Source: Candidatus Latescibacterota bacterium (lineage in GTDB: Bacteria; Latescibacterota; UBA2968; GCA-2709665). From it: a stretch of DNA of 64,000 bases. Shown here in pieces: positions 3,580 to 61,900 of the stretch. Below the pieces are notes generated by a model. The model was not told the DNA's origin, made no database searches, and was given only the letters and a program-made list of their open reading frames with translations. The translations under genes were made by a program, and so were the position numbers. Numbering within the stretch: position 1 is the stretch's first letter; each line of letters begins with the position of its first letter. Location: contig OZ242180.1 of NCBI GenBank assembly GCA_965205485.1, positions 409,292 to 473,291 of the forward strand. Direction: 5' to 3'.

Positions 3580-3612
3580 GGGCAGACAGGAATGTCCGCC
3601 CCACCTTCACAC
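3580..3612. repeat. 32-bp imperfect-hairpin repeat GGGCAGACAGGAATGTCCGCCCCACCTTCACAC (copy 1 of 3)
   Basis: Near-identical copies at 22511..22542 (reverse orientation) and 28514..28548. Arms GTGGGCAGAC / GTCCGCCCCAC can pair. Confidence 0.8.
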
Positions 3613-10172: not shown

Positions 10173-11348
10173 ATGCCCAGCCTCTACGTCCACATCCCGT
10201 TCTGCAAATCCAGGTGTCCCTATTGCGACTTCGCATTCGACGTGGGCAAGACGCACATGGCGGACCGATACACGGCGGCAGTCATCCGTGAGTTCCGGAC
10301 CCGGCTGCCGGAGATGGGCGACCGCACAGAGTTCGACACGGTCTATTTCGGCGGCGGTACGCCATCGGAGGTTCCGCCGGAGTCGCTGCGTCGAATTCTT
10401 GACGCCGCTCGATCGATGTCACGAATCACGCCCGATGCGGAGATTTCCGCCGAAGCCAATCCCGAGGACCGTTCGCGGTTTGCGGAGATGGCTGCTATGG
10501 GCATCAACCGTCTCAGCCTGGGCGTACAGGCCCTGGACAGCGCTACGCTCCGGGCCCTCGGAAGGCGTCACACGCCCGACGATGCCGGGGACGCCGTGGA
10601 CGCCGCGCGCCGGGCCGGCTTCTGCAATCTCAATATCGACCTGATGTTTTCCGCGCCCCGGCAGACGGCATCCGTGTGGAGGGAAACCCTGGACCGGGCT
10701 ATAGACCTTTTTCCCGATCACGTCTCCGTTTACGGGCTGACTGTCGAGCCGGGCACCGCATTCGGCCGCAGATTGAAGGGAGGCCGCCTTCCGCTGCCCC
10801 CCGAAGACACCCAGGCGGAAATGTACGAGGTCGCGCAGGAAAAGCTGAGCGAGGCCGGATTCGTCCAGTACGAAGTCTCGAACTTCGCGCAACCCGGCTT
10901 TGCTTGCCGCCACAATATCGCTTGCTGGGAGAGGCGCGCCTACCTTGGCGTCGGGCTTTCCGCCCATTCCTTCTTCAACAACCGCCGGACCTGGAACATC
11001 CGCCCGCTCATGGCGTATATAGATAATGTGGAATCCTCCGGTGTCGCCATTGACGGGGAAGAGGTGATCTCCTCACGTGAGAGGCGCCTGGAACAGGTGA
11101 TGCTCGGTCTCCGCCGCGCCGACGGCATTCCGGAAGGGCTGTTGGGGGCGGGCCGCAAATCGACCTCTTTCATTCCCGATCACCTACTTGAACGTGGTGA
11201 CGGGCGTGTCCGGCTCACCCGCCGCGGACTCCTGCTGGCGGATCTGATCTGTGCGGAACTGGTAAGAAGCTGTTTTAAAATTACCGGTGAGTTCCCGAGC
11301 GCGAGCGAAAAAGTGGCGGTCAAGGCGGGGAGACCCACCCGTATCTGA
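10173..11348 (+). CDS. hemW: Radical SAM heme chaperone HemW (HemN-like oxygen-independent coproporphyrinogen oxidase family)
   Basis: YVHIPFCKSRCPYCDF (CxxxCxxC cluster motif), GGGTPS, and a HemN C-terminal domain. The last ~27 codons are encoded by a MITE (see 11265..11427). Confidence 0.85.
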   Translation: MPSLYVHIPFCKSRCPYCDFAFDVGKTHMADRYTAAVIREFRTRLPEMGDRTEFDTVYFGGGTPSEVPPESLRRILDAARSMSRITPDAEISAEANPEDRSRFAEMAAMGINRLSLGVQALDSATLRALGRRHTPDDAGDAVDAARRAGFCNLNIDLMFSAPRQTASVWRETLDRAIDLFPDHVSVYGLTVEPGTAFGRRLKGGRLPLPPEDTQAEMYEVAQEKLSEAGFVQYEVSNFAQPGFACRHNIACWERRAYLGVGLSAHSFFNNRRTWNIRPLMAYIDNVESSGVAIDGEEVISSRERRLEQVMLGLRRADGIPEGLLGAGRKSTSFIPDHLLERGDGRVRLTRRGLLLADLICAELVRSCFKITGEFPSASEKVAVKAGRPTRI

Positions 11349-11427
11349 AGACACCGGTGGGTCTTACCAACGCCGACCGGCGCTTTTGCAGCCGCGCGAA
11401 GACCGCTGGGAATTTTAAGACAGCTTC
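11265..11427. mobile_element. MITE-like element, family 1 (TIR AGAAGCTGTYTTAAAATTMCC), copy 1, 163 bp
   Basis: The ends GAAGCTGTTTTAAAATTACC ... GGGAATTTTAAGACAGCTTC are inverted repeats, and both termini (~60 bp and ~50 bp) match the copy at 49909..50120. Contains an internal hairpin AGACCCACC...GGTGGGTCT. The hemW ORF runs into it. Confidence 0.75.
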
Positions 11428-11439
11428 TATGGAGACGGA

Positions 11440-12342
11440 ATGGAAATCCGCCTGAGAGCGCCCGGCTCCACCTCCAACCTGGGTCCCGGATTCGACGCGC
11501 TCGGCCTTGCCCTGACCCTCTACAACCGGGTTGTCATTCGAACCCGGTCCGATGACCGTCGCAGGAGGATGTTCATTACCGGAAAGGGCGCCGGGAAACT
11601 TCCGCTGGACGGATCCAACCTTTTCTTCCGGTCGGCGGACGCGGCCGCTCAACGTGCCGGCCGGTCGCTGCCCGGGCTGGAAGTGGAGATGCACAACGGC
11701 ATCCCGCTCTCCCGCGGCCTGGGAAGCAGTTCCACCGCTATCGTAACCGGCGTGTATGCGGCCAACCTGCTCATGGACGAACCCTTTTCCGGTCCCGCCC
11801 TTCTCAATCTCGCTACGGAACTGGAAGGCCATCCCGATAACGTCGCGCCATGCCTCCTGGGAGGCCTCGTCATCTGCTCCTGCGAAAACGGTCTCGTCGA
11901 GACGATCCGGGCCCTGCCGCCTCGGGAACTTCGTGCCGTGGTCGCGGTCCCCCGCTTTGAACTCCAGACGGAAGCCGCGCGAGCAGCCCTTCCGGAACAC
12001 GTGCCGCACAGGGACGCGGTGTTCAACGTGGGCCGCGCGTGCCTGGTGACGGCGGCGCTGATGAGCGGTGAACTGTGCACATTGAAATCCGCGATGCGCG
12101 ACCGCCTCCATCAGCCGTACCGTGCATCGCTCGTGCCCGGAATCGAAGACGTACTCGAAGCCGCGGAAAAAGCGGGAGCCATGGGCGCTTGCCTCAGCGG
12201 CGCCGGACCGACGTTGCTGGCCTTCGCGACCGATGACGCCACGAATATAGCGGGCGCCATGAAGAACGCGTGGGCGCGTCGGAACATGCACGTCGACACT
12301 GCCGTCCTGCGTGTCGATCATGACGGGGTAACCACGGAATGA
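11440..12342 (+). CDS. thrB: Homoserine kinase
   Basis: GHMP-kinase N-terminus APGSTSNLGPGFDALGLAL and the GHMP motif PLSRGLGSSS. 300 aa. Confidence 0.85.
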   Translation: MEIRLRAPGSTSNLGPGFDALGLALTLYNRVVIRTRSDDRRRRMFITGKGAGKLPLDGSNLFFRSADAAAQRAGRSLPGLEVEMHNGIPLSRGLGSSSTAIVTGVYAANLLMDEPFSGPALLNLATELEGHPDNVAPCLLGGLVICSCENGLVETIRALPPRELRAVVAVPRFELQTEAARAALPEHVPHRDAVFNVGRACLVTAALMSGELCTLKSAMRDRLHQPYRASLVPGIEDVLEAAEKAGAMGACLSGAGPTLLAFATDDATNIAGAMKNAWARRNMHVDTAVLRVDHDGVTTE

Positions 12343-16311: not shown

Positions 16312-19300
16312 ATGCGTTCAATTCGAAAAAACCACAGTATACTGTTCATCCTTGGCGTTCTGCTCGCGCTGGCCGACGCGTCATTTGCCCAGAATCGCGG
16401 TTCGCTGATTACGATTGCAGGCGGCGGCGACCGGGAAGGCGAGAATATCCCCGCGACCGACCTTGCCCTGAGCGTCCCCCTCGGCGCCGCTACCAGCGCC
16501 GACGGCCACGTCTATATCGCCGATACCGGCACGCACCGCATCCGCAGGGTGGATGCGGTCACCGGGCAGGTCACGACCATAGCCGGAACCGGAGAGGCCG
16601 GATTCGCGGGCGACGGAGGACCCGCCGCCGAAGCGCAACTGGACAGACCCCAGGGCATCGCGGTCGATGAGGCCGGCAACGTATATATCGGCGATACGGG
16701 CAACCGGCGCGTCCGGCGCATCGACGCCGCAACGGGGATCATCACCACCGTCGCGGGAAGCGGCGAGTTCGGTTTCGACGGCGACGGAGGTCCGGCTGTC
16801 TCCGCCGTACTCGGCGAAATCGTCGCTCTGACTATAGGCCCTCGCGGCGGACTCTATATCGCTGACGGGCTGGACGGACAGGCGCGGGGCAACAACCGGG
16901 TGCGGAGGATCGACCTCGATACCGGCGTGATCACCACCCTTGCAGGCGACGGCGATTTCTCATTCGGCGGCGACGACGGCCCGGCGGTTGAAGCCGGACT
17001 GACGGTAGAAGACGTCGCAGTCGACGCGTCGGGAAATATCTTCATCGCGGACTTCAACAATTATCGCATCAGGCGTATAGACGGTGAGACAGGCATAATC
17101 AGCACTGTGGCAGGCCGCGGTCCCGTATTCGGAGGCGGCGGCGCATTCTCAGGCGACGGCGGACCGGCCACCGAGGCACGGCTCGATCTGCCCGGCGGCG
17201 TGGCCGTCGGCGTGGACGGAACCCTCTATATATCGGATACCGGCAACAACCGCGTCCGCGCCGTGGATTCCGGTACCGGGAATATCTACACCCTGGCGGG
17301 CACAGGCAATTTCGGATCCGCCGGTGACGGCGGGCCGGCGCCGCTCGCCGAACTCCGAGAGCCCTCTCGCGTGGTCCTGGACCCTGACGACAACCTGATC
17401 GTCGTGGATACCGGCAACAGCCGCATCCGAAAACTTCTCGACCCTGCTTTCCAGTCGCCCGTTCTCAGTCTGACCGCCGCCCGTGTCGACTTCGGAGCGG
17501 TCGTTGTGGAAGACCAGACGACGCGCACGTTTGCGATCGGAAACGTGGGGAGGCGCACCCTCACGCTGTCCAGCGCTTCGACCGACCGGCGGGAGTTCGT
17601 CCTTCTGAACGCATTCCCGGTCGAAATCGATCCGTCCGGGGAGACTGAAATTCAGATTCGGTTCAGCCCCCTGGACGAAGGTGTCGTGCAGGGAACGCTC
17701 ACCATCAATACCGACGATCCATGGCGTCCCGAAGTCACCGTCCCTCTCTCGGGAACGGGCGCGGCGCCGGACATCGGAGTTTTCCCCGAAAGCATCGAAT
17801 TCGATCGTACGTACGTGGGCCGTGAGCAGTCAATCGTCCTGCGGGTCGCAAACCTCGGCGCAGGCGTACTGACGGTCTTCCGCGCCGAACTGACAGACCC
17901 GGTACAATTCTCCGTCAGCCTGGACGATACCCTGCGCATCCCGTCGAGCCTTAGACAGAGCCTGGACGTCGTGTTCCGACCTGTCAACACAGGCACGCAG
18001 CGAGCGGAACTCACGCTGTACAGCAACGATCCCAACGACCCGGAGCTGGTCATACCCCTCCGCGGCTTCGGAAGGGAATCCCGGCCGGGCGGTTTCCTCG
18101 ACGCGGCGGCAGGCCTGAGGATGGCCGATAGCGGCGCCGGCTTCGGCGCCGCCTGGGCGGATTACGACGGGGACGGAGACCCCGACCTGTACGTGGTGCG
18201 CAGCCTGCAGTCCAACCTGCTCTACCGGAACGACGGGGACGGCTTTACGGAGGTGGGCTCCGTGGTTGGCGTGGCGGACGACGGCGACGGCAGCGCGGCC
18301 GCCTGGGCGGACATCGACGGAGACGGCGATCTGGACCTGTACGTCACGAACTTCGGACAGCCCAACCGGCTCTACCGCAACGATGGCAACCGATTCTCCG
18401 AAATCGCCGCGCAGGCCGGCGTGGACGACGGAGGAGACGGGTACGGCGCCGCCTGGGCGGACGTGGAGGGAGACGGCGACCCCGACCTGTACGTGGCCAA
18501 CTTCGGCGATAACCGGTTCTACCGGAATGAACGCGGCCGCTTTGTCGAAGCCGCCGCGGATGCCGGTCTGGACGACGACAACAGCAGCCTGCAGCCGGCG
18601 TGGGCGGACTACGACGGGGACGGCGACCCGGATCTCTTTCTTGCGAACAGCGGGCCGAATCGACTCTTCAGAAACGACGGCGGCAGCTTTGCGGACGCTT
18701 CGTCGGACGCGGGCCTGGAGGAACTCGGACTGGGCGGAGCGAGCTTCGGAGCGGCCTGGGGCGATTTCGATAACGACAGGGACCTGGATCTGTACGTGAC
18801 CTATTTCGGCGAAGGCAACCGCCTTTATGTCAACATCAACGGCCGGTTCGAGGAGTCCAGCAGCAGATTCGACGTGGCGGGACCGGACACCGTGGACAGC
18901 AGGGGCGCGGTCTGGGGTGATTTCGACAGTGACGGCGATCTGGACCTCTTCGTCTCCAATGCCGGAGTGAAGAACAATCTCTACCGAAACGAAGGCGGTA
19001 CCTTCACCGACATGGCTGACTCCTTCCGCGTGGCGGGCGGCGCCAACAGCCGCGGCGTGGCCCTGGCGGACTTCAACGGCGACGGCGGGCTGGACATCTT
19101 CGTGGTCGTTCAGGACGACGCCGACCATCTGTACCAGAACCGGGAATTCAATGGAAACTGGCTGGCCATTCGTCCGCGCGCCACAAGGAGCAGTCCGGAT
19201 GCCATCGGCACGCGATTTGAAATCGCATTCGACGGCACGGCCGCGACCCGGGAGATCACGGGCGGCGCGTCCTATCTTTCCCAGGACGCCCTGACCGCGG

Positions 19301-22291: not shown

Positions 22292-22510
22292 TCGCGTCAG
22301 CGTGTCGGAGCAATTGCCCAGGCGATTCCCACGCCCGCAAATCGGTCGAGTGATATCACGCTTCCAGCCCGTCGGCAAATCCCTGACAGTTTCCCTGCCT
22401 CAATCCTGCCTCCCTGACGCACCATTGCCGGTCTGGTCGTGTCACGGGGACCCCGGCATCCCGTCCTGATACAGGCGTCCCGATCTATTCCTGACGTAGA
22501 GGAAGCCGGT

Positions 22511-22542
22511 TTGAGGGTGGGGCGGACATTCCTGTCTGCCCA
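22511..22542. repeat. 32-bp hairpin repeat (copy 2 of 3, reverse orientation), ~140 nt upstream of the 22682 CDS
   Basis: TGAGGGTGGGGCGGACATTCCTGTCTGCCCAC is the reverse complement of the 3580 and 28514 copies. Confidence 0.8.
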
Positions 22543-22681
22543 CATTGATGCCGTCGCTGTCTCGGCTTGCACGTGGCGAAACCTGGGAGACGGCACGTCG
22601 GCTGGCTTTCCGTTGGGCTCAGATTGACTGGTCGGCCGACCAACGCAAGCCGAATGGCAACTTTCTTCCGAAGGACTTACG

Positions 22682-28513: not shown

Positions 28514-28548
28514 GTGGGCAGACAGGAATGTCCGCCCCACCTTCACAC
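28514..28548. repeat. 32-bp hairpin repeat (copy 3 of 3), in the 5' leader ~70 nt upstream of the giant gene start on the minus strand
   Basis: GTGGGCAGACAGGAATGTCCGCCCCACCTTCACAC is identical to the 3580 copy. Confidence 0.8.
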
Positions 28549-29015
28549 CGGTCCTTCGCGGTAAGGGCGCCGTCGCTGTCCAGATCGTCGCATATTATAT
28601 ATTATTATTGTGATAATATACTAAATTATGATGACTATATAGTGAATAATGCGCTTTATTATCGTGACGTTATCGTGATTTTTCGCTGAAACAACACGGC
28701 TTCCCGGCGATGCCGGTCGGTAGACCTGCAGCAGAGGGTTGCCGTCGGTCGCTGACCGGATCGCCACGTGGTAGAATCAGGTGTACAGTGGGAGGGTATG
28801 GCGTCCGGGGAGAGTCGTGAAGCGACATTCGGGTTGCTGAACCTGACCGTCGAGTGCGAGAAAACGTGGGCGTCCGTGGGTGGGCGCTGCGTGGAATTGA
28901 TAGCAGATAGGTATTGTCGCCGGATGTGCTCCGTTTCAGCCCGGTGGGATCGCAGAGTCGTACAGAAGAAAGGCCCTGCTGACATATTCTCAGCAGAGCC
29001 CGTGGGAAGAAGCCA

Positions 29016-29178
29016 GTGTTCTGTCCCGGAAATAAGTTGCCAAAATTCGACCGCCGAGTCGCCCGGCTCGCAAGGCGACCGAGCGCAGGCGACCTGCGTA
29101 TGGTCGGCGAGCGAGGTGAACGTAGCGAGACGGGATGAATCGCCGGTCGAATGGTGAGGAATTTTTGGGACAGGACAC
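29016..29178. mobile_element. MITE-like element, family 2 (TIR GTGTTCTGTCCCGGAAATA), copy 1, ~163 bp
   Basis: GTGTTCTGTCCCGGAAATAAGTTGCCAAAATTCGACCGCCGAGTCGCCCGGCTCGCAAGGCG...GGGATGAATCGCCGG...TTTTTGGGACAGGACAC. The termini are inverted repeats. Homologous copies lie at 52822..52983 (reverse) and 61703..61863. Confidence 0.75.
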
Positions 29179-29271
29179 TATGTCCGAAAGCAGGGTCACG
29201 GTGTTACGGCACACCCCGTTTCGCACCAGTACCTTCTGTGTCTCGTGTGCTTTTTGCGGCCGATTTAACGG

Positions 29272-37560: not shown

Positions 37561-37593
37561 AAAAAAGGAGCCGGAAATTCCGGCTCCTTTTTT
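37561..37593. terminator. Bidirectional rho-independent terminator AAAAAAGGAGCCGG-aaatt-CCGGCTCCTTTTTT
   Basis: Perfect 10-bp stem with A- and T-runs, between convergent genes ending at 37535 (+) and 37615 (-). The same hairpin core recurs at 43003..43037. Confidence 0.7.
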
Positions 37594-37614
37594 GTTTTGC
37601 CAACCCGGCTGCGA

Positions 37615-43002: not shown

Positions 43003-43037
43003 AAAAAAAAAGAGCCGGAAATTCCGGCTCCTTTTTG
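43003..43037 (-). terminator. Rho-independent terminator closing the minus-strand methyltransferase operon
   Basis: AAAAAAAAAGAGCCGG-aaatt-CCGGCTCCTTTTT, downstream of the CDS ending at 43065 on the minus strand. Confidence 0.6.
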
Positions 43038-43064
43038 TTCGGTCCAACCCGAGTTGGCTCTCTA

Positions 43065-47207: not shown

Positions 47208-48830
47208 CTACCCGGCTTTTAGAGAAGGCATCGGCTTGAACTGGCAGCCTTCCACGAACACCTCGAAGAAGTCCGGCGTCGTTTCGAGTTCGACATGCTC
47301 GATTTCCTTCACGAGCGCCTCGACGGTCGCCCTTTTCTCACGCGAAAGCAGGACCTCACGGGCGCCCTGGACAGCCGCATTTCCCGTCTTCACCACGCGT
47401 TCCTCGTCGACCGGCGCCAGGAATCCGATCTCGATCGCGTTCCGCACGTCCACGTAATTCGCGAATCCCCCGGCCAGGTATAGTGTGTCGATATCTTCCG
47501 GCCCAACCCCGAGGTGTCGCATCAGGATGAACTGTCCACAGAAATTCGCGGCCTTGGCCTGGGCCAGGTTGCTGGCGTCTTCGCGGGACAGCGTGATCCC
47601 GTAATCCGGGACAACCGGGATCTCGAAGGACCGGTCGGCAAACATCCCTTTGGGCGCCATGAGTTCGTGCCGCCGTAACTCCGCCAGCAGATCGATCAAC
47701 CCGGACCCGCACATTCCCTCCGGCTCGACGTTTCCAATGGTCCTGTACTGGAACCCGCCGTCTTGCAGACGGATCGACTCGATGGCGCCCTCGTGGCCGG
47801 GCATCCCGTACCGGACCAGCCCGCCCTCGAACGCGGGCCCGGCCGGACACGAGGCAGTGAGCAGTCCGTTGGCGCCTCGCACCACCACCTCGGTATTGGT
47901 CCCCACGTCCACCAGCATCACGACGCCATCCTGAGACATCAGGTCCGTCGCCAGGAGGTCTGCCGCCGTATCCGCCCCCACGTGGCTGGCGATCAGGGGC
48001 ATCCCGTAGACCTTTGCCCGCGGATTGGCGCGCAGCCCCAGTCGCCTGGAACCCTCCAGCAGGGAAGTCGTCTCCCGCACGCCCTTGAGAAATGCGTGCT
48101 CCACGCGGGACTTGTACGGTCTCTGGCCGATGCTCTGCACGTCCAGCTTGAAGAAGATGTCCCGCATCGTGGCGTTTCCCGCCACGACGATCTCGTAGAT
48201 TTCCTGCCGGACAAACCCGAATCTTCTTCCCAGATCGAGGATTTCGTGGTTGATCGCGTTGACGACCGCTTTCTGCAGTTCACCCTGAAACTCCCCGTCG
48301 TAGGAGATGCGATTCATCACGTCGCTGCCGCCGAAACGCTGCGGGTTCTCGAACGAACTCACGTGGACACTCTTGCCCGTGGCCAGATCCACCAGGTCCA
48401 TGACCACCGTTGTCGTGCCCAGATCGATCGCGATTCCGTAAAGGTGGCCGCGATACCTGTCGACGGCGACGCCGTCATAATAAACAACGTCCCCCAGGCG
48501 CGTGACCAGGGGGTCCGGATCCAGCGATTTTTCCAGGGAATGTGAAAGAATCCTGGGTTTGCGCCTCAACGGCGAGAACTCGATATCGGCTTCGTCGTTT
48601 TCAACCACCGCCTGACAGGCGAGGCGGTAATTCTCCCGCAGGAACGACTCCACGTCGTTCCGCGGCCGCAATGCGTCCATCCCGCACCCGATTTCAACCA
48701 CGCACTCGTGACAGTGTCCGGTGCGTCCGCAGGAAGTGGGCACCTGGACCGCCAGTTCGTCCGCATAGTCGAATATCGTCTTCCCGGCTGCCAGCGCCCG
48801 CCTCTTCCCGTCGTGAGATATGGTACCCAT
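47208..48830 (-). CDS. RACo-like reductive activator of corrinoid proteins ([2Fe-2S] ferredoxin N-domain plus ASKHA ATPase, DUF4445-like)
   Basis: N-terminal MGTISHDGKRRALAAGKTIFDYA...SCGRTGHCHEC (plant-type 2Fe-2S C-x4-C-x2-C), followed by ASKHA-type phosphate-binding loops (IAIDLGTTT; VDVGTNTE). Start at an internal Met; ~541 aa. Confidence 0.7.
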   Translation of the reverse strand: MGTISHDGKRRALAAGKTIFDYADELAVQVPTSCGRTGHCHECVVEIGCGMDALRPRNDVESFLRENYRLACQAVVENDEADIEFSPLRRKPRILSHSLEKSLDPDPLVTRLGDVVYYDGVAVDRYRGHLYGIAIDLGTTTVVMDLVDLATGKSVHVSSFENPQRFGGSDVMNRISYDGEFQGELQKAVVNAINHEILDLGRRFGFVRQEIYEIVVAGNATMRDIFFKLDVQSIGQRPYKSRVEHAFLKGVRETTSLLEGSRRLGLRANPRAKVYGMPLIASHVGADTAADLLATDLMSQDGVVMLVDVGTNTEVVVRGANGLLTASCPAGPAFEGGLVRYGMPGHEGAIESIRLQDGGFQYRTIGNVEPEGMCGSGLIDLLAELRRHELMAPKGMFADRSFEIPVVPDYGITLSREDASNLAQAKAANFCGQFILMRHLGVGPEDIDTLYLAGGFANYVDVRNAIEIGFLAPVDEERVVKTGNAAVQGAREVLLSREKRATVEALVKEIEHVELETTPDFFEVFVEGCQFKPMPSLKAG

Positions 48831-48835
48831 GCGTA

Positions 48836-49111
48836 CTATTCGTCGCCCCCGACGAATGCGCCCAGTTTCTCCTCCGTTTCCCAGGCGCCGCGGTAGTCCA
48901 GCTTGTCGTCTCCACCGCACATCAGCAGCGTTCCGCCCGGACGCGGCCTCCGCTGATTTCTGCAGCCGAACCTGGCGGTACACTCGTCGAAACGGTTCTT
49001 GTACGGGCACCGTACGGTTGAGAGTTCATCGGCATGGGCGATCATGCCGGCAAACAGTTCCGTGATCCTGTCCAGCCGCTTCTGATATTCCTCTTTTTCG
49101 ATCTTATGCAC
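48836..49111 (-). CDS. Small Cys-containing hypothetical protein (~70-92 aa) between the corrinoid protein and RACo
   Basis: ORF tightly packed between stops and starts (stop 6 nt before the RACo start). CPYKNRFDEC...C...C spacing suggests a small metal-binding module. Start ambiguous: GTG at 49111 or ATG at 49045. Confidence 0.35.
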   Translation of the reverse strand: MHKIEKEEYQKRLDRITELFAGMIAHADELSTVRCPYKNRFDECTARFGCRNQRRPRPGGTLLMCGGDDKLDYRGAWETEEKLGAFVGGDE

Positions 49112-49119
49112 GGTCGGGC

Positions 49120-49890
49120 TCAGGGGTTCAGGTTGGTCTCTACCTTCATCTCTTCGAGCAGGTCTTTGGCCAGGGCCACGCACGCCATCGCGTCTTTTCC
49201 GTACCCGTCCGCGCCCATATCGTCGGCGAATTCCTGCGTGACGGGCGCGCCACCCACCATGATCTTGACGTCTTCACGCAAATCCGCATCGATGAACGCC
49301 TCGATCGTCTTGCCCATATTCGGCATGGTTGTCGTCAGCAGCGCCGACATCCCAAGCAGCGGAGCACCGTGTTCCTCCACGGCATCCATGAATTCGTCCT
49401 CCGACGTGTCCACCCCCAGATCGTGAACGACAAACCCCGCGCCACGAAGCATCATGATGCACAGGTTCTTTCCAATGTCGTGCAGGTCGCCCTTTACAGT
49501 TCCCATGATGACCGTTCCGATCGGCTCGATGCCCGACGCGGAGAGAATGGGTTCGATATAGGCCATGCCGGCCTTCATCGCCCGGGCGCAGGCCAGCACT
49601 TCCGGAACGAAGATGAAGTTCTCCCGGAACTTGATCCCGACAATGCCCATTCCCGCGATCAACCCGTCGTCCATCACCTCCAGCGCCCCGGTTCCTGCAT
49701 CCAGTGCGGCTTTGGTCAACGCGTCCACTTCGTGATGGTCGCCGTCGATCAGGGCCGCGGCAATGGCCTGCATATCGGGAGTGACTCCGGCAAACGTGGC
49801 GATCGCCCGCTCCCGTTCTTCTTCCCGCTCGAGGAACTCCTCGATTTCGTCGCGGATGAATTCGTTTCCAATATCGGTAATTTCCGCCAT
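49120..49890 (-). CDS. Cobalamin-binding corrinoid protein (MtaC/MtbC/MetH-B12-domain-like)
   Basis: B12-binding helical cap then a Rossmann-like domain with the DxHxxG motif (KGDLHDIGKN) and ...MSALLTTTM.... 256 aa. Confidence 0.8.
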   Translation of the reverse strand: MAEITDIGNEFIRDEIEEFLEREEERERAIATFAGVTPDMQAIAAALIDGDHHEVDALTKAALDAGTGALEVMDDGLIAGMGIVGIKFRENFIFVPEVLACARAMKAGMAYIEPILSASGIEPIGTVIMGTVKGDLHDIGKNLCIMMLRGAGFVVHDLGVDTSEDEFMDAVEEHGAPLLGMSALLTTTMPNMGKTIEAFIDADLREDVKIMVGGAPVTQEFADDMGADGYGKDAMACVALAKDLLEEMKVETNLNP

Positions 49891-49908
49891 TATTCACCTG
49901 CCCCCTTA

Positions 49909-50120
49909 GAAGCTGTCTTAAAATTCCCAGCAGTCTTCGCACGGCTGCAAAAGCGCCGGTCGGCGTTGGTCAAACCCGCCCAAGAGTGGCGAGGGGCGCG
50001 CAGCCACGATACATTGGATATGGGCGAGTTTTCCCGTCGGCGCTGCACGCCCTTCGCGCCTCATAACCGCCGCTTTTTCGCTCGCGCTCGGGAACTCACC
50101 GGTAATTTTAAGACAGCTTC
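49909..50120. mobile_element. MITE-like element, family 1, copy 2, 212 bp, flanked by a TTA/TTA 3-bp duplication
   Basis: GAAGCTGTCTTAAAATTCCC...GGTAATTTTAAGACAGCTTC. Both ends are homologous to 11265..11427 but the internal segment differs. Its terminal TIR provides the last three codons and stop (K-L-S-TAA) of the UroD-family MT gene. Confidence 0.75.
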
Positions 50121-51166
50121 TTATCCGCCGGCGTCTCCCGGTGCCAGTCCCGGACCGCACCTGGAATCTCCTTCAGGTTTTCGATTGACGTCTGCAGCGG
50201 GATGGCGCACTCCGGACCCACGAGATGCACGCCTGCGTCCAGGTTCCTGAAAACCTCCTGCCTCACGGCTTCAGGCCCTTTTGAAAACAGCGTTTCCGGA
50301 TTGTTGATGTTGCCCACCAGCGAGATCCGCTCCTTAACCGCCGCCATGGACTCTCCCGGTTCGTTCTTCGAGTCGTAATGGAACGCGGACATCCCGGTCT
50401 GCGCGATGTACTCCATACGATCGACGGTCCGCCCGCAGATGTGCAGAATCAGCGGAATGGGGATCCTCTCCACGAACTCGATATGCAGGTCACGCAGATA
50501 CCGCTTGTAGTATTCCCCGCTCACGAGGTCGCCCGTCGCGTGATCGGGCAGCGTGAGCGCATCAGCGCCCGCCTCGATCTGCGCCACCCCGAAGTCCACC
50601 GTCACTTCCTTCATCCTGTCCAGACATGCCTTTGTCTTGTCCGGGTCGTCCAGCGACATGAGCAGAAAGGGCTCCACGCCGAAGCAGTGGTATCCCAGCG
50701 ACCATGGGCCCATTGTCTTGCCGATGACGGCCACGGCGTCTCCGTATTCCTTTTTCAGAATCCGGATCGCGTCCAGTACGCACTTCGTATCCTGGTGCGT
50801 GAGCAGGTCCGGCGGAATCTGAATGTCGTCCACGTCTTCCCAGATGGGCTCGCGCATCCTCACGGTGGGCCAGTTGTCTTTCTGCTCCCACTGGATCTTG
50901 CAGCCCATTGCGGACGACTCCTGGATAATTGTGAACACCGGCATGATCGAATCGAACCCCAACTCCGTATGCCCGGTGGCGGCAAGACGGGCCATCAGTT
51001 CCGGATCGCGGTTCGCATCCGGAAATGGCGCGTCCACGAGATCCATCAACTCCACGGTCGCCACCGACGTTGGATTGCACACGGGCGTCCGGTCCACCGG
51101 CTCCCGGTTCAGCGCCGCCAGAACACGCTCGCGGCCGGTCATTGGACCCACTGTGCGAGTCGCCAT
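50108..51166 (-). CDS. Uroporphyrinogen-decarboxylase-family methyltransferase (MtaA/MtbA/CmuA-N-like; methyl donor unknown)
   Basis: MTGRERVLAALNREPVDRTPV... is the classic MtaA/UroD N-terminus, with a TIM barrel and a Zn-ligand region (H...C...C). Start at an ATG with a CAGGAGAC RBS. 352 aa. Confidence 0.75.
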   Translation of the reverse strand: MATRTVGPMTGRERVLAALNREPVDRTPVCNPTSVATVELMDLVDAPFPDANRDPELMARLAATGHTELGFDSIMPVFTIIQESSAMGCKIQWEQKDNWPTVRMREPIWEDVDDIQIPPDLLTHQDTKCVLDAIRILKKEYGDAVAVIGKTMGPWSLGYHCFGVEPFLLMSLDDPDKTKACLDRMKEVTVDFGVAQIEAGADALTLPDHATGDLVSGEYYKRYLRDLHIEFVERIPIPLILHICGRTVDRMEYIAQTGMSAFHYDSKNEPGESMAAVKERISLVGNINNPETLFSKGPEAVRQEVFRNLDAGVHLVGPECAIPLQTSIENLKEIPGAVRDWHRETPADKKLS

Positions 51167-52795: not shown

Positions 52796-52821
52796 GACGC
52801 TAACCGTCCGGCAGGTATACG

Positions 52822-52983
52822 GTGTCCCGTCCTGGAAATATGTCACCATTCTTCGGCCGATTCATCCCGTCTTGCTTCGTTGCCTTCGCTCGCTGACCTT
52901 GCCCAGGTCACCTCGCTCAGGCGCCTTGCCAGCCGGGCGACTCGGCCACCGAATTTCGGCAACCTATTTCCAGGACAGAACAC
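52822..52983. mobile_element. MITE-like element, family 2, copy 2 (reverse orientation), 162 bp
   Basis: The reverse complement reads GTGTTCTGTCCTGGAAATAGGTTGCCGAAATTCGGTGGCCGAGTCGCCCGGCTGGCAAGGCG...GGGATGAATCGGCCG...TATTTCCAGGACGGGACAC. The terminal TIR supplies the last codons and stop (…SWK-TAG) of the HAD hydrolase gene. Confidence 0.75.
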
Positions 52984-53821
52984 TCGCCACGGTCTTCGAG
53001 AACCCTTCATGCTCCAGCGGTTCGCACGTCCGCACGCCCGCCTCGGCGGCTGAATCCCTGGTCAGACGGTCCGCGTTTCCCATCAGCACGCCGATGCCCG
53101 CCGCCTTCAGCATCGGCAGGTCGTTATCCCCGTCTCCAATCGCAAGCGACTGGGCAAGGGCGACGCCGCACGCATCGCAGATCTCCCGCAATGCCACCGC
53201 CTTGTTCACGTCCGGATGCATGATCTCGATCCGGTCGTCGCCCGTGCGGGCGAGATAGAACCGCCGCCCGAACGCCGCACGCATCCTCTCGAACAAGTCT
53301 TCCCGTCGACCGGGACCGGGCAGCAAGATCATCTTCGGCGGGGGAACCAGATCCCGCGCCATGGACAACAGGTCCGGCTCCAGCACGATATTCACGCCCG
53401 TCATCCGCACAAGATTTCGGATCCACGCGGTCTCTTCGTCCGTAATATAGGCCTCGCTGAGGCCGGTCTGATCGGTCTCGCACCGGCAATAGATGAAGTT
53501 CACACCACTATTGCCGACAAAATCAACAAGATCGGGAAAGCCATCCGCCGGCAATCGCTGTTCGTGCAGCAACGACCGCTCGTTATCCGCGCCGGTTCCC
53601 AGCACCATCGCGCCGTTGTAGCTTCCGACACTCAAAACCGGCCGGACATCCGGGGGAAACGGCGCCAGGCTCTTCCCCACGTTTCGACCGCTGATCGACG
53701 CCATCGCGATTCCGGCTCGCGCCAGCCGTCGAAGCGCCTCGACAGTCGTGCTTGACATCCGGCCCCTGTCGTCGAGCAGCGTACCATCCAGATCGAACGC
53801 CACGAGCCGCACGTCACCCAT
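52964..53821 (-). CDS. HAD-IIB (Cof-type) phosphatase
   Basis: VAFDLDGTLL (motif I), ...ASISGR (II), ...AIGDGDNDLPM (IV). 285 aa from the internal Met. Confidence 0.75.
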   Translation of the reverse strand: MGDVRLVAFDLDGTLLDDRGRMSSTTVEALRRLARAGIAMASISGRNVGKSLAPFPPDVRPVLSVGSYNGAMVLGTGADNERSLLHEQRLPADGFPDLVDFVGNSGVNFIYCRCETDQTGLSEAYITDEETAWIRNLVRMTGVNIVLEPDLLSMARDLVPPPKMILLPGPGRREDLFERMRAAFGRRFYLARTGDDRIEIMHPDVNKAVALREICDACGVALAQSLAIGDGDNDLPMLKAAGIGVLMGNADRLTRDSAAEAGVRTCEPLEHEGFSKTVASVLSWK

Positions 53822-54898: not shown

Positions 54899-55942
54899 TC
54901 AGTCCACCAGGGGCAGATGCACCACGCCGCCCCGTTCCACGGATCGGAAAACCGCCTCGGTAAACGCCATGTACTTCAGGCCGGCTTCGAAGGTCGTATC
55001 ACCTGGAGGTCCGCCCTGGATCGCGCTCACGAAATCCTGCTCCACGGTCCACTCGCGCGCTTCGTCATCGGGAATTGGCATCACCGACAGCTCACTGTCT
55101 CCGGACCGCCCGCCCAGAATGGTGTCGCTCTCCAGCTTGTAGATCAGTGTCCCCTCGCTGCCGTAGAGCTCCACCTGCGGGTCTGTGCCAAAGCGCGCCA
55201 CGGAGGAGAACAGAAACGCGGCCTGCGCGCCGTTCTCCATCTGTCCCAAGATATGCACCGAATCGGGGCGTTCCACCGGTCCCGTTCCCTGGCCGTCGGC
55301 CAGCGGCCGCGTCCTGGTGAACGTCTCCGCGTGCGCCGATATCGTCTTCATCTGGCCGGCCCAACGTTGCACGATCTCCACCAGGATGCCCATGTTCAGC
55401 GCGTTCAGACCGGAAAACCGGTCGATCTGCCGCCAGTGCAGCGGCTGTTCCGGATCGCAGTTGTCGCCGCTGAACGACCGGGTATAGACATGGTAGATAT
55501 CTCCCAGGTATCCCTCCCGGATCAGCCGTTGGATGAACCAGTCGCCCTTCATCGCCATCGGCGACGGGCAGATCTGCGTGACGAGGCCCGTCTCCCGCGC
55601 CCTGGCGTACATGGCCTTTGCCTCGCCAAGGTTCATGGCCATCCTCGCCTGCACGAAGACGTGCTTTCCCGCGTCAAGGGACGCCAGCACGTATTCGCAG
55701 TGGCGGTACGGCCACGTACCGATCATCACCGCGTCCACGTCCTCGCTCCCGATCAACGCGTACGGATCCGACATCAGTCTCGGCGACAAGCCGAATTCGC
55801 GCGCGATCGCGCCCGCGCTTGCCTCGCTCCGGTTGCAGATGGCAACCACCTCCGCGTCCCCGATCTTCGCCAACCCGGGGAAATGACGGCTCCGGAAAAT
55901 GCCGCCGGCGCCGATAATTCCAATTCGAATCTTGTCCGACAT
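54899..55942 (-). CDS. Gfo/Idh/MocA-family oxidoreductase
   Basis: IRIGIIGAGGIFRSRH..., AVMIGTWPYRH.... Confidence 0.75.
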   Translation of the reverse strand: MSDKIRIGIIGAGGIFRSRHFPGLAKIGDAEVVAICNRSEASAGAIAREFGLSPRLMSDPYALIGSEDVDAVMIGTWPYRHCEYVLASLDAGKHVFVQARMAMNLGEAKAMYARARETGLVTQICPSPMAMKGDWFIQRLIREGYLGDIYHVYTRSFSGDNCDPEQPLHWRQIDRFSGLNALNMGILVEIVQRWAGQMKTISAHAETFTRTRPLADGQGTGPVERPDSVHILGQMENGAQAAFLFSSVARFGTDPQVELYGSEGTLIYKLESDTILGGRSGDSELSVMPIPDDEAREWTVEQDFVSAIQGGPPGDTTFEAGLKYMAFTEAVFRSVERGGVVHLPLVD

Positions 55943-55988
55943 TTTTCCTCCTTGGAAGCTGTTTCAAAACCCCCATCGTATCACGGGT

Positions 55989-57263
55989 CTACGCCCGGTA
56001 CAACCTGTCCAGCAACTCAACGGCCGCTTCCACGATCTTCTCGCCGGATCCCGGCGTGAAGAGGGCCGCTTCGGGTTCGTAACCGCCTTCTCTATAGGCC
56101 TGTTCGTCCGGCAGATATCCCACACTGTCGTTGGCCAGTTCCAGGACCATCGTCTGACCGAAAGGAGACCGACGCTTGATTTCCAGGCCGAGTCTTACCA
56201 ACAGTTCTCCCGGTACACCCACGAGGGCCAGGTTTCCGATTCGAAGCGCCTGCACCCATGTTCGCGACGAGTCCGGCACTTCCGCCATCCGACGCAGAAT
56301 CCGCCGGGCGAACGCCCGCTCCGCCATGGTCCCTCGACCCTCTTGGTCGATTTCCCTGGCCCGGGTGATATCGGCCGGCGAAGGGCCGGCCTTGCGCTGA
56401 AGCGCCACTTCCACCATTTCAGCGCCGAGAGGCAGGTCGCGGGCGAAATCCATCCCGTTCCATGCCCAGAAGGCCTGGGCAGCCACCAACGCGGCGACCC
56501 GTTCCGAATGCTGGTGCCGGTCGTTCGCGCTTCGGCTGCCTCCAATCACGTCGTGGTTGTTGATGTCGCCCGAAGCGCCGTTCGAAAGTGCCGCCGTAAA
56601 CCGTTGGCCTCGCATGCGCTGAATGAGACTCGAAAAATATCCGAAATAGTCTGCCGAGATCTCCCGCTCGTGGTCGCCGCCGCCCACGTAGTGCAACGCG
56701 TAGTTGCACAACAGTCCCACGGGTGCGCCATCCGTTTTCTGAATACAGAGCACACCCACGTCCGGGTCAACCGGGCCCGCGGCCCTCACCACGTCGGGAT
56801 TGCCGGTACCGGGGTTGGTCCGCACCGTGCCGTCTGCCATATGAAACCGCCGGTTGAACACCGGCCGGCCCTCTTCCGCGCGCCCCCAGCCTGCGCCCAC
56901 CGCATCGCGTCCGTCCCAGGCGATGCGCACGGAATCGGCAATCCGTTCCACCAAGAATGCCGTATATGCGTCATCTCCCGTCTGGGCGCCGGAGTGGGTG
57001 TGGGTACAGCAGATCATCACCCGTTCGGGAGCCAGACCGGTGGTCCCGGCAATTCGCGCCCTTGCCGCGTCCAGGTATGTCCGCGACACACCGACGAGAT
57101 CGCAGACGGCGATCGCGATGCCCGCACCGTCACGCTCCAGAACGAAACTGCGGACGTTCAGCGGATCGTGGATCCCCTCCGCCCTGCGTTCGTGAAACAG
57201 GCCCGGAATCAGCGTTCCCAGCGGCGGTGTGATATCCAGTGTGATCGCGCCCCCGTTCAGCAT
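55989..57263 (-). CDS. Neutral/alkaline ceramidase-like hydrolase, paralog of the 2041..3390 gene; cytoplasmic
   Basis: Shared blocks with the first copy: ITPPLG, CCTHTHSG, FNRRFHMADGTVRTNPG, NYALHYVGGG...ADYFGYF. Confidence 0.55.
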   Translation of the reverse strand: MLNGGAITLDITPPLGTLIPGLFHERRAEGIHDPLNVRSFVLERDGAGIAIAVCDLVGVSRTYLDAARARIAGTTGLAPERVMICCTHTHSGAQTGDDAYTAFLVERIADSVRIAWDGRDAVGAGWGRAEEGRPVFNRRFHMADGTVRTNPGTGNPDVVRAAGPVDPDVGVLCIQKTDGAPVGLLCNYALHYVGGGDHEREISADYFGYFSSLIQRMRGQRFTAALSNGASGDINNHDVIGGSRSANDRHQHSERVAALVAAQAFWAWNGMDFARDLPLGAEMVEVALQRKAGPSPADITRAREIDQEGRGTMAERAFARRILRRMAEVPDSSRTWVQALRIGNLALVGVPGELLVRLGLEIKRRSPFGQTMVLELANDSVGYLPDEQAYREGGYEPEAALFTPGSGEKIVEAAVELLDRLYRA

Positions 57264-61457: not shown

Positions 61458-61702
61458 CCATTCCTCTCCGGGCGAAAAAAAGCCCGGCAACGTTGCCGGA
61501 GTGTAAGTTCCTGTCACCGGGAAGGGGTCGGAACATACCACATTCATGGAGGGCGATCAAGGCATTTCTGGCCTAACAGCCCGTTGAAAAAGTCCATCCG
61601 GGCTGCGGCCGGCCTTTGCGGTCGAAATACTGCGTTGCGCTCCCTCACCGAATCGACGGATGGGACTCGGTCGCGCGCCTTGTCTTCAACCACAATGGCA
61701 AG

Positions 61703-61863
61703 TGTTCTGTCCCGGAAATAGATTGCCGAAATTCGACCGCCGAGTCGGCCGGCTGGCAAGGCGCCTGAGCAAGGAGACCTGTCCGTGGTCGCCGAGCGAA
61801 GGCAACGCCGCCAGACGGGATGAATCGGCGGATGAATGGTGACATTTTTCCGGGACGGGACAC
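61703..61863. mobile_element. MITE-like element, family 2, copy 3, 161 bp
   Basis: GTGTTCTGTCCCGGAAATAGATTGCCGAAATTCGACCGCCGAGTCGGCCGGCTGGCAAGGCG...GGGATGAATCGGCGG...TTTTTCCGGGACGGGACAC. Confidence 0.75.
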
Positions 61864-61900
61864 CATGCCTCGCCTGCAGAGCGACTTTCTCAACGGACTG

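Follow-up and report, generated by a model that had tools for sequence, protein, structure and literature searches.

Short, non-coding, multi-copy elements bounded by terminal inverted repeats (TIRs) and flanked by a short target-site duplication are known from several bacteria, as Correia/NEMIS in Neisseria, ERIC/IRU in enterobacteria and RUP in pneumococcus; they are co-transcribed with their neighbours as stable hairpins and at times alter the ends of genes. In eukaryotes, PIF/Harbinger transposons are accompanied by Tourist-like miniature inverted-repeat transposable elements (MITEs): the transposase is an IS5-related DDE enzyme, the duplication is 3 bp long (TWA or TNA), and the MITEs retain only the termini of the autonomous element. 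Among bacterial insertion sequences (ISs), those of the IS1031 group of the IS5 family measure about 850-950 bp in ISfinder. Here we describe two copies of a repeat in 64,000 nucleotides from a Candidatus Latescibacterota bacterium (contig OZ242180.1; this whole stretch is the window, and positions are counted from its first letter), one at the 3' end of hemW and one at the 3' end of an MtaA-type methyltransferase gene. In our judgement both are very probably non-autonomous DNA transposons, that is, MITEs, which carry the termini of an IS5-family IS of about 930 bp and would be moved in trans by the DDE transposase of that IS.

Like the Correia, ERIC and RUP elements, the Latescibacterota family consists of long-hairpin MITEs at gene junctions, known here from sequence alone; it differs from them in its unrelated sequence, its phylum, its IS5-type TNA target and its modular interior. 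PIF/Harbinger elements are eukaryotic, larger and dependent on a second, Myb-like protein, whereas the partner in the present case is a compact bacterial IS with a single open reading frame (ORF). In mechanism and membership, a MITE of an IS5-family, IS1031-like element is of a well-understood kind and will not surprise the specialist. The host, on the other hand, belongs to an uncultured, little-studied phylum for which we found no description of such mobile elements in the literature; our searches returned no paper on Latescibacteria and MITEs together, nor one in which the TIR sequence appears.

The 18-nt TIR AGAAGCTGTYTTAAAATT has four exact matches in the window, where shuffled sequences lead one to expect 0.01. 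They lie at 11265-11282 (+), 11411-11428 (-), 49908-49925 (+) and 50104-50121 (-), forming two pairs that face inward (11265/11428 and 49908/50121). The outermost A/T of each match belongs to the target duplication, which sets the bounds from TIR to TIR at 11266..11427 for copy 1 and 49909..50120 for copy 2; counted with the flanking A/T, the elements are 164 and 214 bp long and belong to the 164-bp and 214-bp classes of the family. The two are in opposite orientations, the L end (…AAAATTACCGGTGAG) coming first on the + strand in copy 1 and on the - strand in copy 2. Their common ends extend over 58 nt (97% identity) and 77 nt (92%) in a comparison of the repeats of the window, whereas their interiors are dissimilar: copy 1 has a short central loop and is without the module M1, while copy 2 contains this 24-nt module and central loop A. 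Neither shows coding capacity in an ORF scan beyond the ORFs of neighbouring genes that run into it. A preliminary description of this DNA had proposed a MITE at both places, with shared inverted-repeat termini and differing interiors; this is confirmed, and its coordinates are correct within 1 nt.

On its left, copy 1 is flanked by TAA (11263..11265), assigned from the sequence and the TNA rule of the family, and on its right by TA(T) (11428..11430), assigned from the sequence and by reconstruction against orthologues. Copy 2 has TTA on the + strand, hence TAA on the - strand, on both sides (49906..49908 and 50121..50123), in agreement with the empty site GGA TAA GGGGGCAGGTGA in a relative, L127 (L-numbers denote stretches from related genomes that were compared with the window).

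The family extends far beyond these two loci. An exact-match scan for the TIR through one genome per species (596 Gb) gave more than 116 stretches among the matches listed, dominated by metagenome-assembled genomes (MAGs) of Candidatus Latescibacterota; the matches concentrate in these and in a second group, MAGs labelled Gemmatimonadota with RHO isolate names, and stray single matches in AT-rich genomes are near the level that chance alone would give for an 18-mer in a search of this size. The isolate names of the MAGs (RHO, Plut) would suit an origin from sponges or corals. In three assemblies (OZ242358, OX638329 and the JAPPJY contigs) the matches fall in at least 11-13 eight-kb blocks each. 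The blocks from related genomes contain 61 TIR pairs spaced 60-300 bp; their modal length is 164 bp (18 copies), and lengths cluster again near 187 and 214 bp. At least eight other MAGs have 164-bp copies that match copy 1 at 90-93% identity, and copy 2 is 94.9% identical to the 215-bp copy at L061:856-1070. Each window copy thus has near-identical counterparts elsewhere, so that the differing interiors, correctly noted before, represent two established subfamilies and not private decay. With just two copies in 64 kb, one might have thought of a local duplication or recombination within this genome, or of an assembly artefact; such an origin is exceedingly unlikely for a repeat found in dozens of copies at unrelated loci of many independently assembled MAGs, with precise boundaries marked by duplications and with relatives in which both sites are empty.

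Aligned, the copies show a common backbone whose left arm may or may not include M1; the central loop comes in three forms (short, A and B), and L118 alone has a 27-nt insert. The best alignment of the core of loop B is with the reverse complement of loop A, and pairs at orthologous sites (L012/L083, L061/L076, L118/L120) differ by whole modules (215 vs 188 bp), a pattern that suggests inversion of the loop and exchange of modules in place. A metagenome scan with an internal 19-mer returned 53 stretches with 5 true copies, all on LXNJ01 contigs of one assembly and none with the parent IS on the same stretch. L121, an entire contig of 1213 bp, ends within a MITE, and a contig end falls within an IS at L036:1-178; MITE and IS repeats appear to break short-read assemblies.

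The target-site duplication was assessed on the 61 TIR pairs, counting the outermost A/T as target. Identical 3-bp TNA sequences stand on both sides in 41 of them (TAA 21, TTA 11, TGA 7, TCA 2), and the middle base agrees in 49, against 2 for the adjacent outward triplet taken as control. The 3-bp duplication first described for the window is thus a property of the family, although not restricted to TTA/TAA: its general form is TNA. A 2-bp TA duplication of the IS630/mariner type is ruled out, as all of A, T, G and C occur in the middle position, and the middle base is nevertheless the same on both sides in those 49 copies. In the 38 copies that could be oriented, which underlie both the target logo and the counts of gene context below, TNA is followed by G at each of the next two positions in 21-22 and preceded by C in 17; the target is a weakly palindromic cc-TNA-GG.

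Empty sites exist for both window copies. At the first locus, hemW (10173..11348, + strand; the radical-SAM haem chaperone, TIGR00539, 287 bits) runs into copy 1, so that codons 365-391 and the stop (11265..11348) are element-encoded; these 27 codons, RSCFKITGEFPSASEKVAVKAGRPTRI, end with TGA at 11346-11348. Orthologues of HemW that are 77-90% identical to it have 372 aa and the C-terminus ...AELV(R/G)EMEWKSA, and the two other members of the 90% cluster to which the window HemW belongs, its closest relatives, end in GEMEWKSA; orthologues without the repeat are thus without the tail. Directly after copy 1 sits the stranded ancestral 3' end of hemW, ATGGAGACGGAATGGAAATCCGCCTGA, encoding METEWKSA-stop (11429..11455, + strand), as recognised by comparison with L117 and L122. 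It is overlapped by thrB (11440..12342, + strand), an ORF whose orthologue has the GHMP_kinases domains of homoserine kinase and whose GGAG ribosome-binding site lies directly 3' of copy 1. The hemW-thrB junction is empty in L117 (CTGGTCGGAGAGATGGAATGGAAATCCGCCTGA), L122 (CTGG TCA GGGAGATGG...) and L123; hemW and thrB overlap by 16 nt in L117 and L122, and by comparison the ancestral 3' end of the window hemW formerly overlapped the start of thrB by the same 16 nt. From the empty sites and the surviving METEWKSA-stop remnant it follows that the insertion severed eight codons of the native gene and put 27 from the element in their place.

This site may have been filled more than once. Copies also occupy it in L118 and L119 (215 bp), L120 (188 bp) and L121; at another locus, L061 and L076 likewise have a site in common that holds different element variants. 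At least four lineages have the hemW site occupied, and in a tree of HemW the filled lineages are spread over two or more clades, interspersed with empty ones. The duplication reads TAA/TA(T) in the window vs TCA/TCT in L118 and L120; the differing middle base (A/A vs C/C) argues for at least two independent insertions at hemW, and the central-loop variant that the copies at this site have in common suggests related source copies behind them.

At the second locus, the gene for an MtaA/CmuA-type methyltransferase of the URO-D family (50108..51166, - strand; PF01208, 230 bits) ends with ...GAT AAG AAG CTG TCT TAA, of which K-L-S-stop lies within the TIR. The operon continues immediately downstream of the element with the gene for a corrinoid (B12-binding) protein (49120..49890, - strand; PF02310 and PF02607). 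In L127, whose mtaA is 97% identical, the two genes are adjacent without an element, and the junction, GGA TAA GGGGGCAGGTGAGAAATGGCG, equals the window flanks of copy 2 joined by one TAA, which there is the stop codon of mtaA. The window mtaA has a 1-nt deletion just upstream of the element, so that its frame continues via AAG AAG CTG TCT TAA in the TIR; the C-termini of its orthologues are variable (…DWHRE(R)(0-6 aa)). Comparison with empty sites therefore bears out, for hemW and mtaA alike, the earlier view that each copy is fused to the 3' end of a gene, to which it contributes the last ~27 residues in the one case and K-L-S-stop in the other. This matters for annotation, as the 27-residue tail of HemW and the C-terminus of MtaA are transposon-derived and not native; chimeric proteins of this kind (P0001, P0008, P0018) have already been called by automated pipelines.

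The surroundings of copy 2 (47208-51166, - strand) look like a methyltransferase operon, composed of the MtaA/CmuA-type methyltransferase, the corrinoid protein and a large ORF (47208..49010) that we take, by assumption and not from a family search, to be a RamA-like corrinoid activator. Proteins of MAGs labelled Poribacteria and Latescibacteria are among the closest homologues of the methyltransferase, a hint of life in association with a host.

The autonomous partner is found in related MAGs, as IS elements of 930-958 bp with the same termini, the TNA duplication and one ORF of 266-275 aa. The element at L050:6045-6975 (OZ241986, Latescibacterota) is 931 bp long and flanked by TCA/TCA; its single ORF (267 aa as delimited) matches DUF4096 (PF13340, 95 bits) and DDE_Tnp_1 (PF01609, 106 bits) and reaches 240 bits against the NCBIfam IS5 family model NF033580, for which the cut-off is 110. 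The IS5-type transposition surmised from the flanks alone is thereby supported by a candidate enzyme. Further copies are present in L125 (930 bp) and L124 (958 bp), with one IS end in L036, and homologous transposases are common on contigs of about 930-1100 bp. Within the IS5 family, a single ORF and a three-nucleotide target are described as typical for the IS1031 group (PMC2516522). In its 930-958 bp, its single ORF with DUF4096 and DDE_Tnp_1, its TIRs of about 18 bp and its TNA target, the partner resembles this group (with IS427/ISL2 as neighbours); it can be classed as an IS5-family IS with IS1031-like features, the subgroup being read from size, ORF number and target. The window copies differ from it in that they are without a transposase and have about 19 bp at each end in common with it. 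The features by which a MITE is recognised from sequence are all present in this family: copies that are short and without a transposase ORF, TIRs, a target duplication of fixed length, dispersal over many loci, insertion polymorphism, and a matching autonomous IS. In L124, a 154-bp AT-rich MITE (341-494) with the same TIR abuts the full-length IS (496-1453), the two being separated only by a shared TAA; the arrangement looks like a tandem or nested insertion at a duplicated target.

The partner also bears on a different origin, in which the repeats would be REP/BIME-like palindromes spread by a RAYT transposase of the HUH/Y1 type or by recombination. TIRs with a short duplication are hallmarks of DDE cut-and-paste and are unexpected for the single-strand transposition of HUH enzymes. 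The repeats do resemble such palindromes in being intergenic and strongly palindromic and in forming a strand-asymmetric hairpin, and the window contains other small GC-rich hairpin repeats (D11, I6, I8); against this stand the 18-bp TIRs with a 3-bp TNA duplication in two thirds of the copies (41/61), the empty sites, which restore precisely one TNA, and the existence of an IS5-family element with identical termini and duplication whose enzyme is a DDE transposase. We thus regard a REP/BIME origin as very unlikely.

For the IS5-type MITE, the course of events may be pictured as follows. The transposase would recognise the termini of about 18 bp (GAAGCTGTYTTAAAATT) and insert the element at TNA, preferably at cc-TNA-GG, with duplication of the 3 bp. 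TAA or TGA followed by GG would, in a GC-rich genome, be the pattern formed where a gene ends and the ribosome-binding site of its successor begins, and insertions within genes are presumably purged by selection. The preference for cc-TNA-GG in a genome of about 61% GC, combined with purifying selection, whose part in this we infer, would lead to a pile-up at junctions of stop codon and ribosome-binding site. None of the 38 oriented copies in fact falls within a predicted gene. The duplicated TNA is the stop codon of the upstream gene in five, a TAG is created across the junction in four, and the upstream ORF continues into the element in further copies, the two of the window among them.

These varied outcomes follow from the three frames through T-N-A-GAAGCTGTYTTAAAATT: one stops at TNA if N is A or G, the second ends with TAG or with the TAA contained in TTTTAAAA, and the third stays open (R-S-C-F/L-K-I...). 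Depending on the reading frame, the duplicated TNA may thus stay in use as stop codon; or the TIR may supply a stop within 1-5 codons ((K)-K-L-S/F-stop), which is the case of copy 2; or the frame AGA AGC TGT YTT AAA ATT may remain open and yield an element-encoded tail, which is the case of copy 1, with 27 residues in place of the native REMEWKSA-like end. Copy 1 at the same time broke the 16-nt overlap of hemW and thrB and placed a very stable hairpin between the two cistrons, and may in this way have effects on expression. The family offers a clean, well-documented case of an IS5-type transposase with a TNA target which, together with its MITE, takes advantage of the pattern of stop codon and ribosome-binding site; this pattern would permit harmless landing between the genes of an operon. 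Both window copies are oriented alike relative to transcription; this is a coincidence of the window and no orientation bias of the family, since 23 copies with co-directional flanking genes divide into 12 sense and 11 antisense.

Several observations weigh against the origin as a MITE mobilised in trans, or at least against its sufficiency. The window contains no autonomous IS: tblastn detects no transposase similarity within the 64 kb, and the list of transposase homologues shows no cluster on the contig that bears the window HemW (a weak negative), so that the partner anticipated by the preliminary description is at hand in related MAGs and not in the window itself. The similarity of MITE and IS is limited to about 19 bp per terminus, and mobilisation in trans is accordingly argued from the identity of TIR and target duplication; the same alignment rules out that the MITE is a simple deletion derivative of the IS. 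The right duplication of copy 1 is decayed, being one base short of the expected TAA+GA… (TAA vs TAT). In 37 of 38 copies, the fold of the strand starting with AGAAGCTGTTTTAAAATTACCGGT is more stable than that of its complement by about 19 kcal/mol. The orthologous elements of L118 and L120 are 93% identical, against 81-86% for the flanking coding DNA, and 164-bp copies are 93.0% identical between genomes vs 94.7% within, in a sample biased to intact TIRs. From a purely selfish element in neutral decay one would expect neither the strand asymmetry nor the conservation, and the repeated filling of the hemW site is likewise not easily squared with neutrality.

As RNA, both copies fold into rod hairpins of extreme stability (copy 1: -94.5 kcal/mol, z = -10; copy 2: -111.1 kcal/mol, z = -6.9). 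Their more stable strand has the polarity of the transposase gene of the IS, and the AT-rich subfamily shows the same strand polarity of its fold. One may therefore ask whether the element is a functional structured RNA or single-stranded DNA module, kept by selection, whether to stabilise mRNA between cistrons, to mark a site of processing or to act as a small RNA, its origin from a transposon being secondary. Stability and strand preference would fit such a function, as would the presence of the same polarity in the AT-rich subfamily; the asymmetry is, however, mostly inherited from one consensus and so amounts to a single event, and the random orientation relative to the transcription of flanking genes (12:11) is hard to square with a strand-specific operon RNA. 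Copy-specific changes in the arms create G·U in 17 cases and A·C in 5, as expected if pairing were maintained, with p ~0.02 in a set of copies preselected for intact TIRs. The conservation of orthologous copies above adjacent coding DNA and a consensus equal across genomes point the same way, but recent activity or gene conversion among copies also yields high similarity. The 3' end of hemW is occupied in at least four lineages with differing sets of modules, which again would suit a function. No consensus match to a promoter-like or terminator-like signal is found in or around copy 1, and terminator or promoter function was rejected on this ground; a known structured RNA family is likewise ruled out, as Rfam gives no match on the window at gathering thresholds and none at E <= 1 for the two elements. 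Taken together, we hold selection for a structured module to be unlikely as the primary explanation.

A related and equally doubtful proposal keeps the transposon origin and adds a second stage, in which selection for structure on one strand would act on the 164-nt hairpin and would have fixed it time and again at the same operon junctions, the MITE family having been recruited in Latescibacterota as a modular inter-cistronic element of RNA or single-stranded DNA. If this were true, the recruited hairpin might serve in the processing or stability of transcripts or in the uncoupling of translation. The strand asymmetry and the conservation make this a concrete, testable hypothesis.

A third trace of the MITE family may lie at 55954..55971 (+ strand), where GGAAGCTGTTTCAAAACC matches 14 of the 18 positions of the TIR and could be a solo TIR remnant. 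It is located in the 46-nt intergenic gap between two - strand genes and abuts, on the upstream side, the GGAGG ribosome-binding site of the gene at 54899..55942; its context, CAA-GG, is typical of the family. The profile of the family detects it weakly (nhmmer, E = 0.11 over 55954-55998). That it is a MITE remnant is plausible, if unproven; a degenerate half-TIR had been placed at 55947, on the ribosome-binding site, and is in fact beside it, 7 nt away from that position, and statistically weak.

The window contains further repeats. A second family of about 170 nt with TIRs of its own (GTGTYCYGTCCYGGAAATA…) is represented at 29012-29182, 52821-52989 (inverted) and 61696-61867, with matches of 72-89% identity at other Latescibacterota loci (L004, L025, L043), and is probably another MITE family. 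Adjoining its last copy is a third repeat of about 130 nt (61557-61699), 84-95% identical to sequences in L002, L010, L025, L037, L040, L100 and L102. A GC-rich hairpin repeat of 33-38 nt (GGGCAGACAGGAATGTCCGCCCCACCTTCACAC), which looks REP-like, occurs at 3580-3612, 22506-22543 and 28514-28551, in both orientations and with 94-100% identity. Two copies of a perfect palindrome between runs of A and T (AAAAAAGGAGCCGGAAATTCCGGCTCCTTTTTT; 37561-37607 and 43005-43051) look like bidirectional intrinsic terminators. The seven tandem units of about 150 nt at 18122-19105 (…WADYDGDGDPDLYV-like), finally, lie in a coding region and belong to a repeat-domain protein, not to a mobile element.

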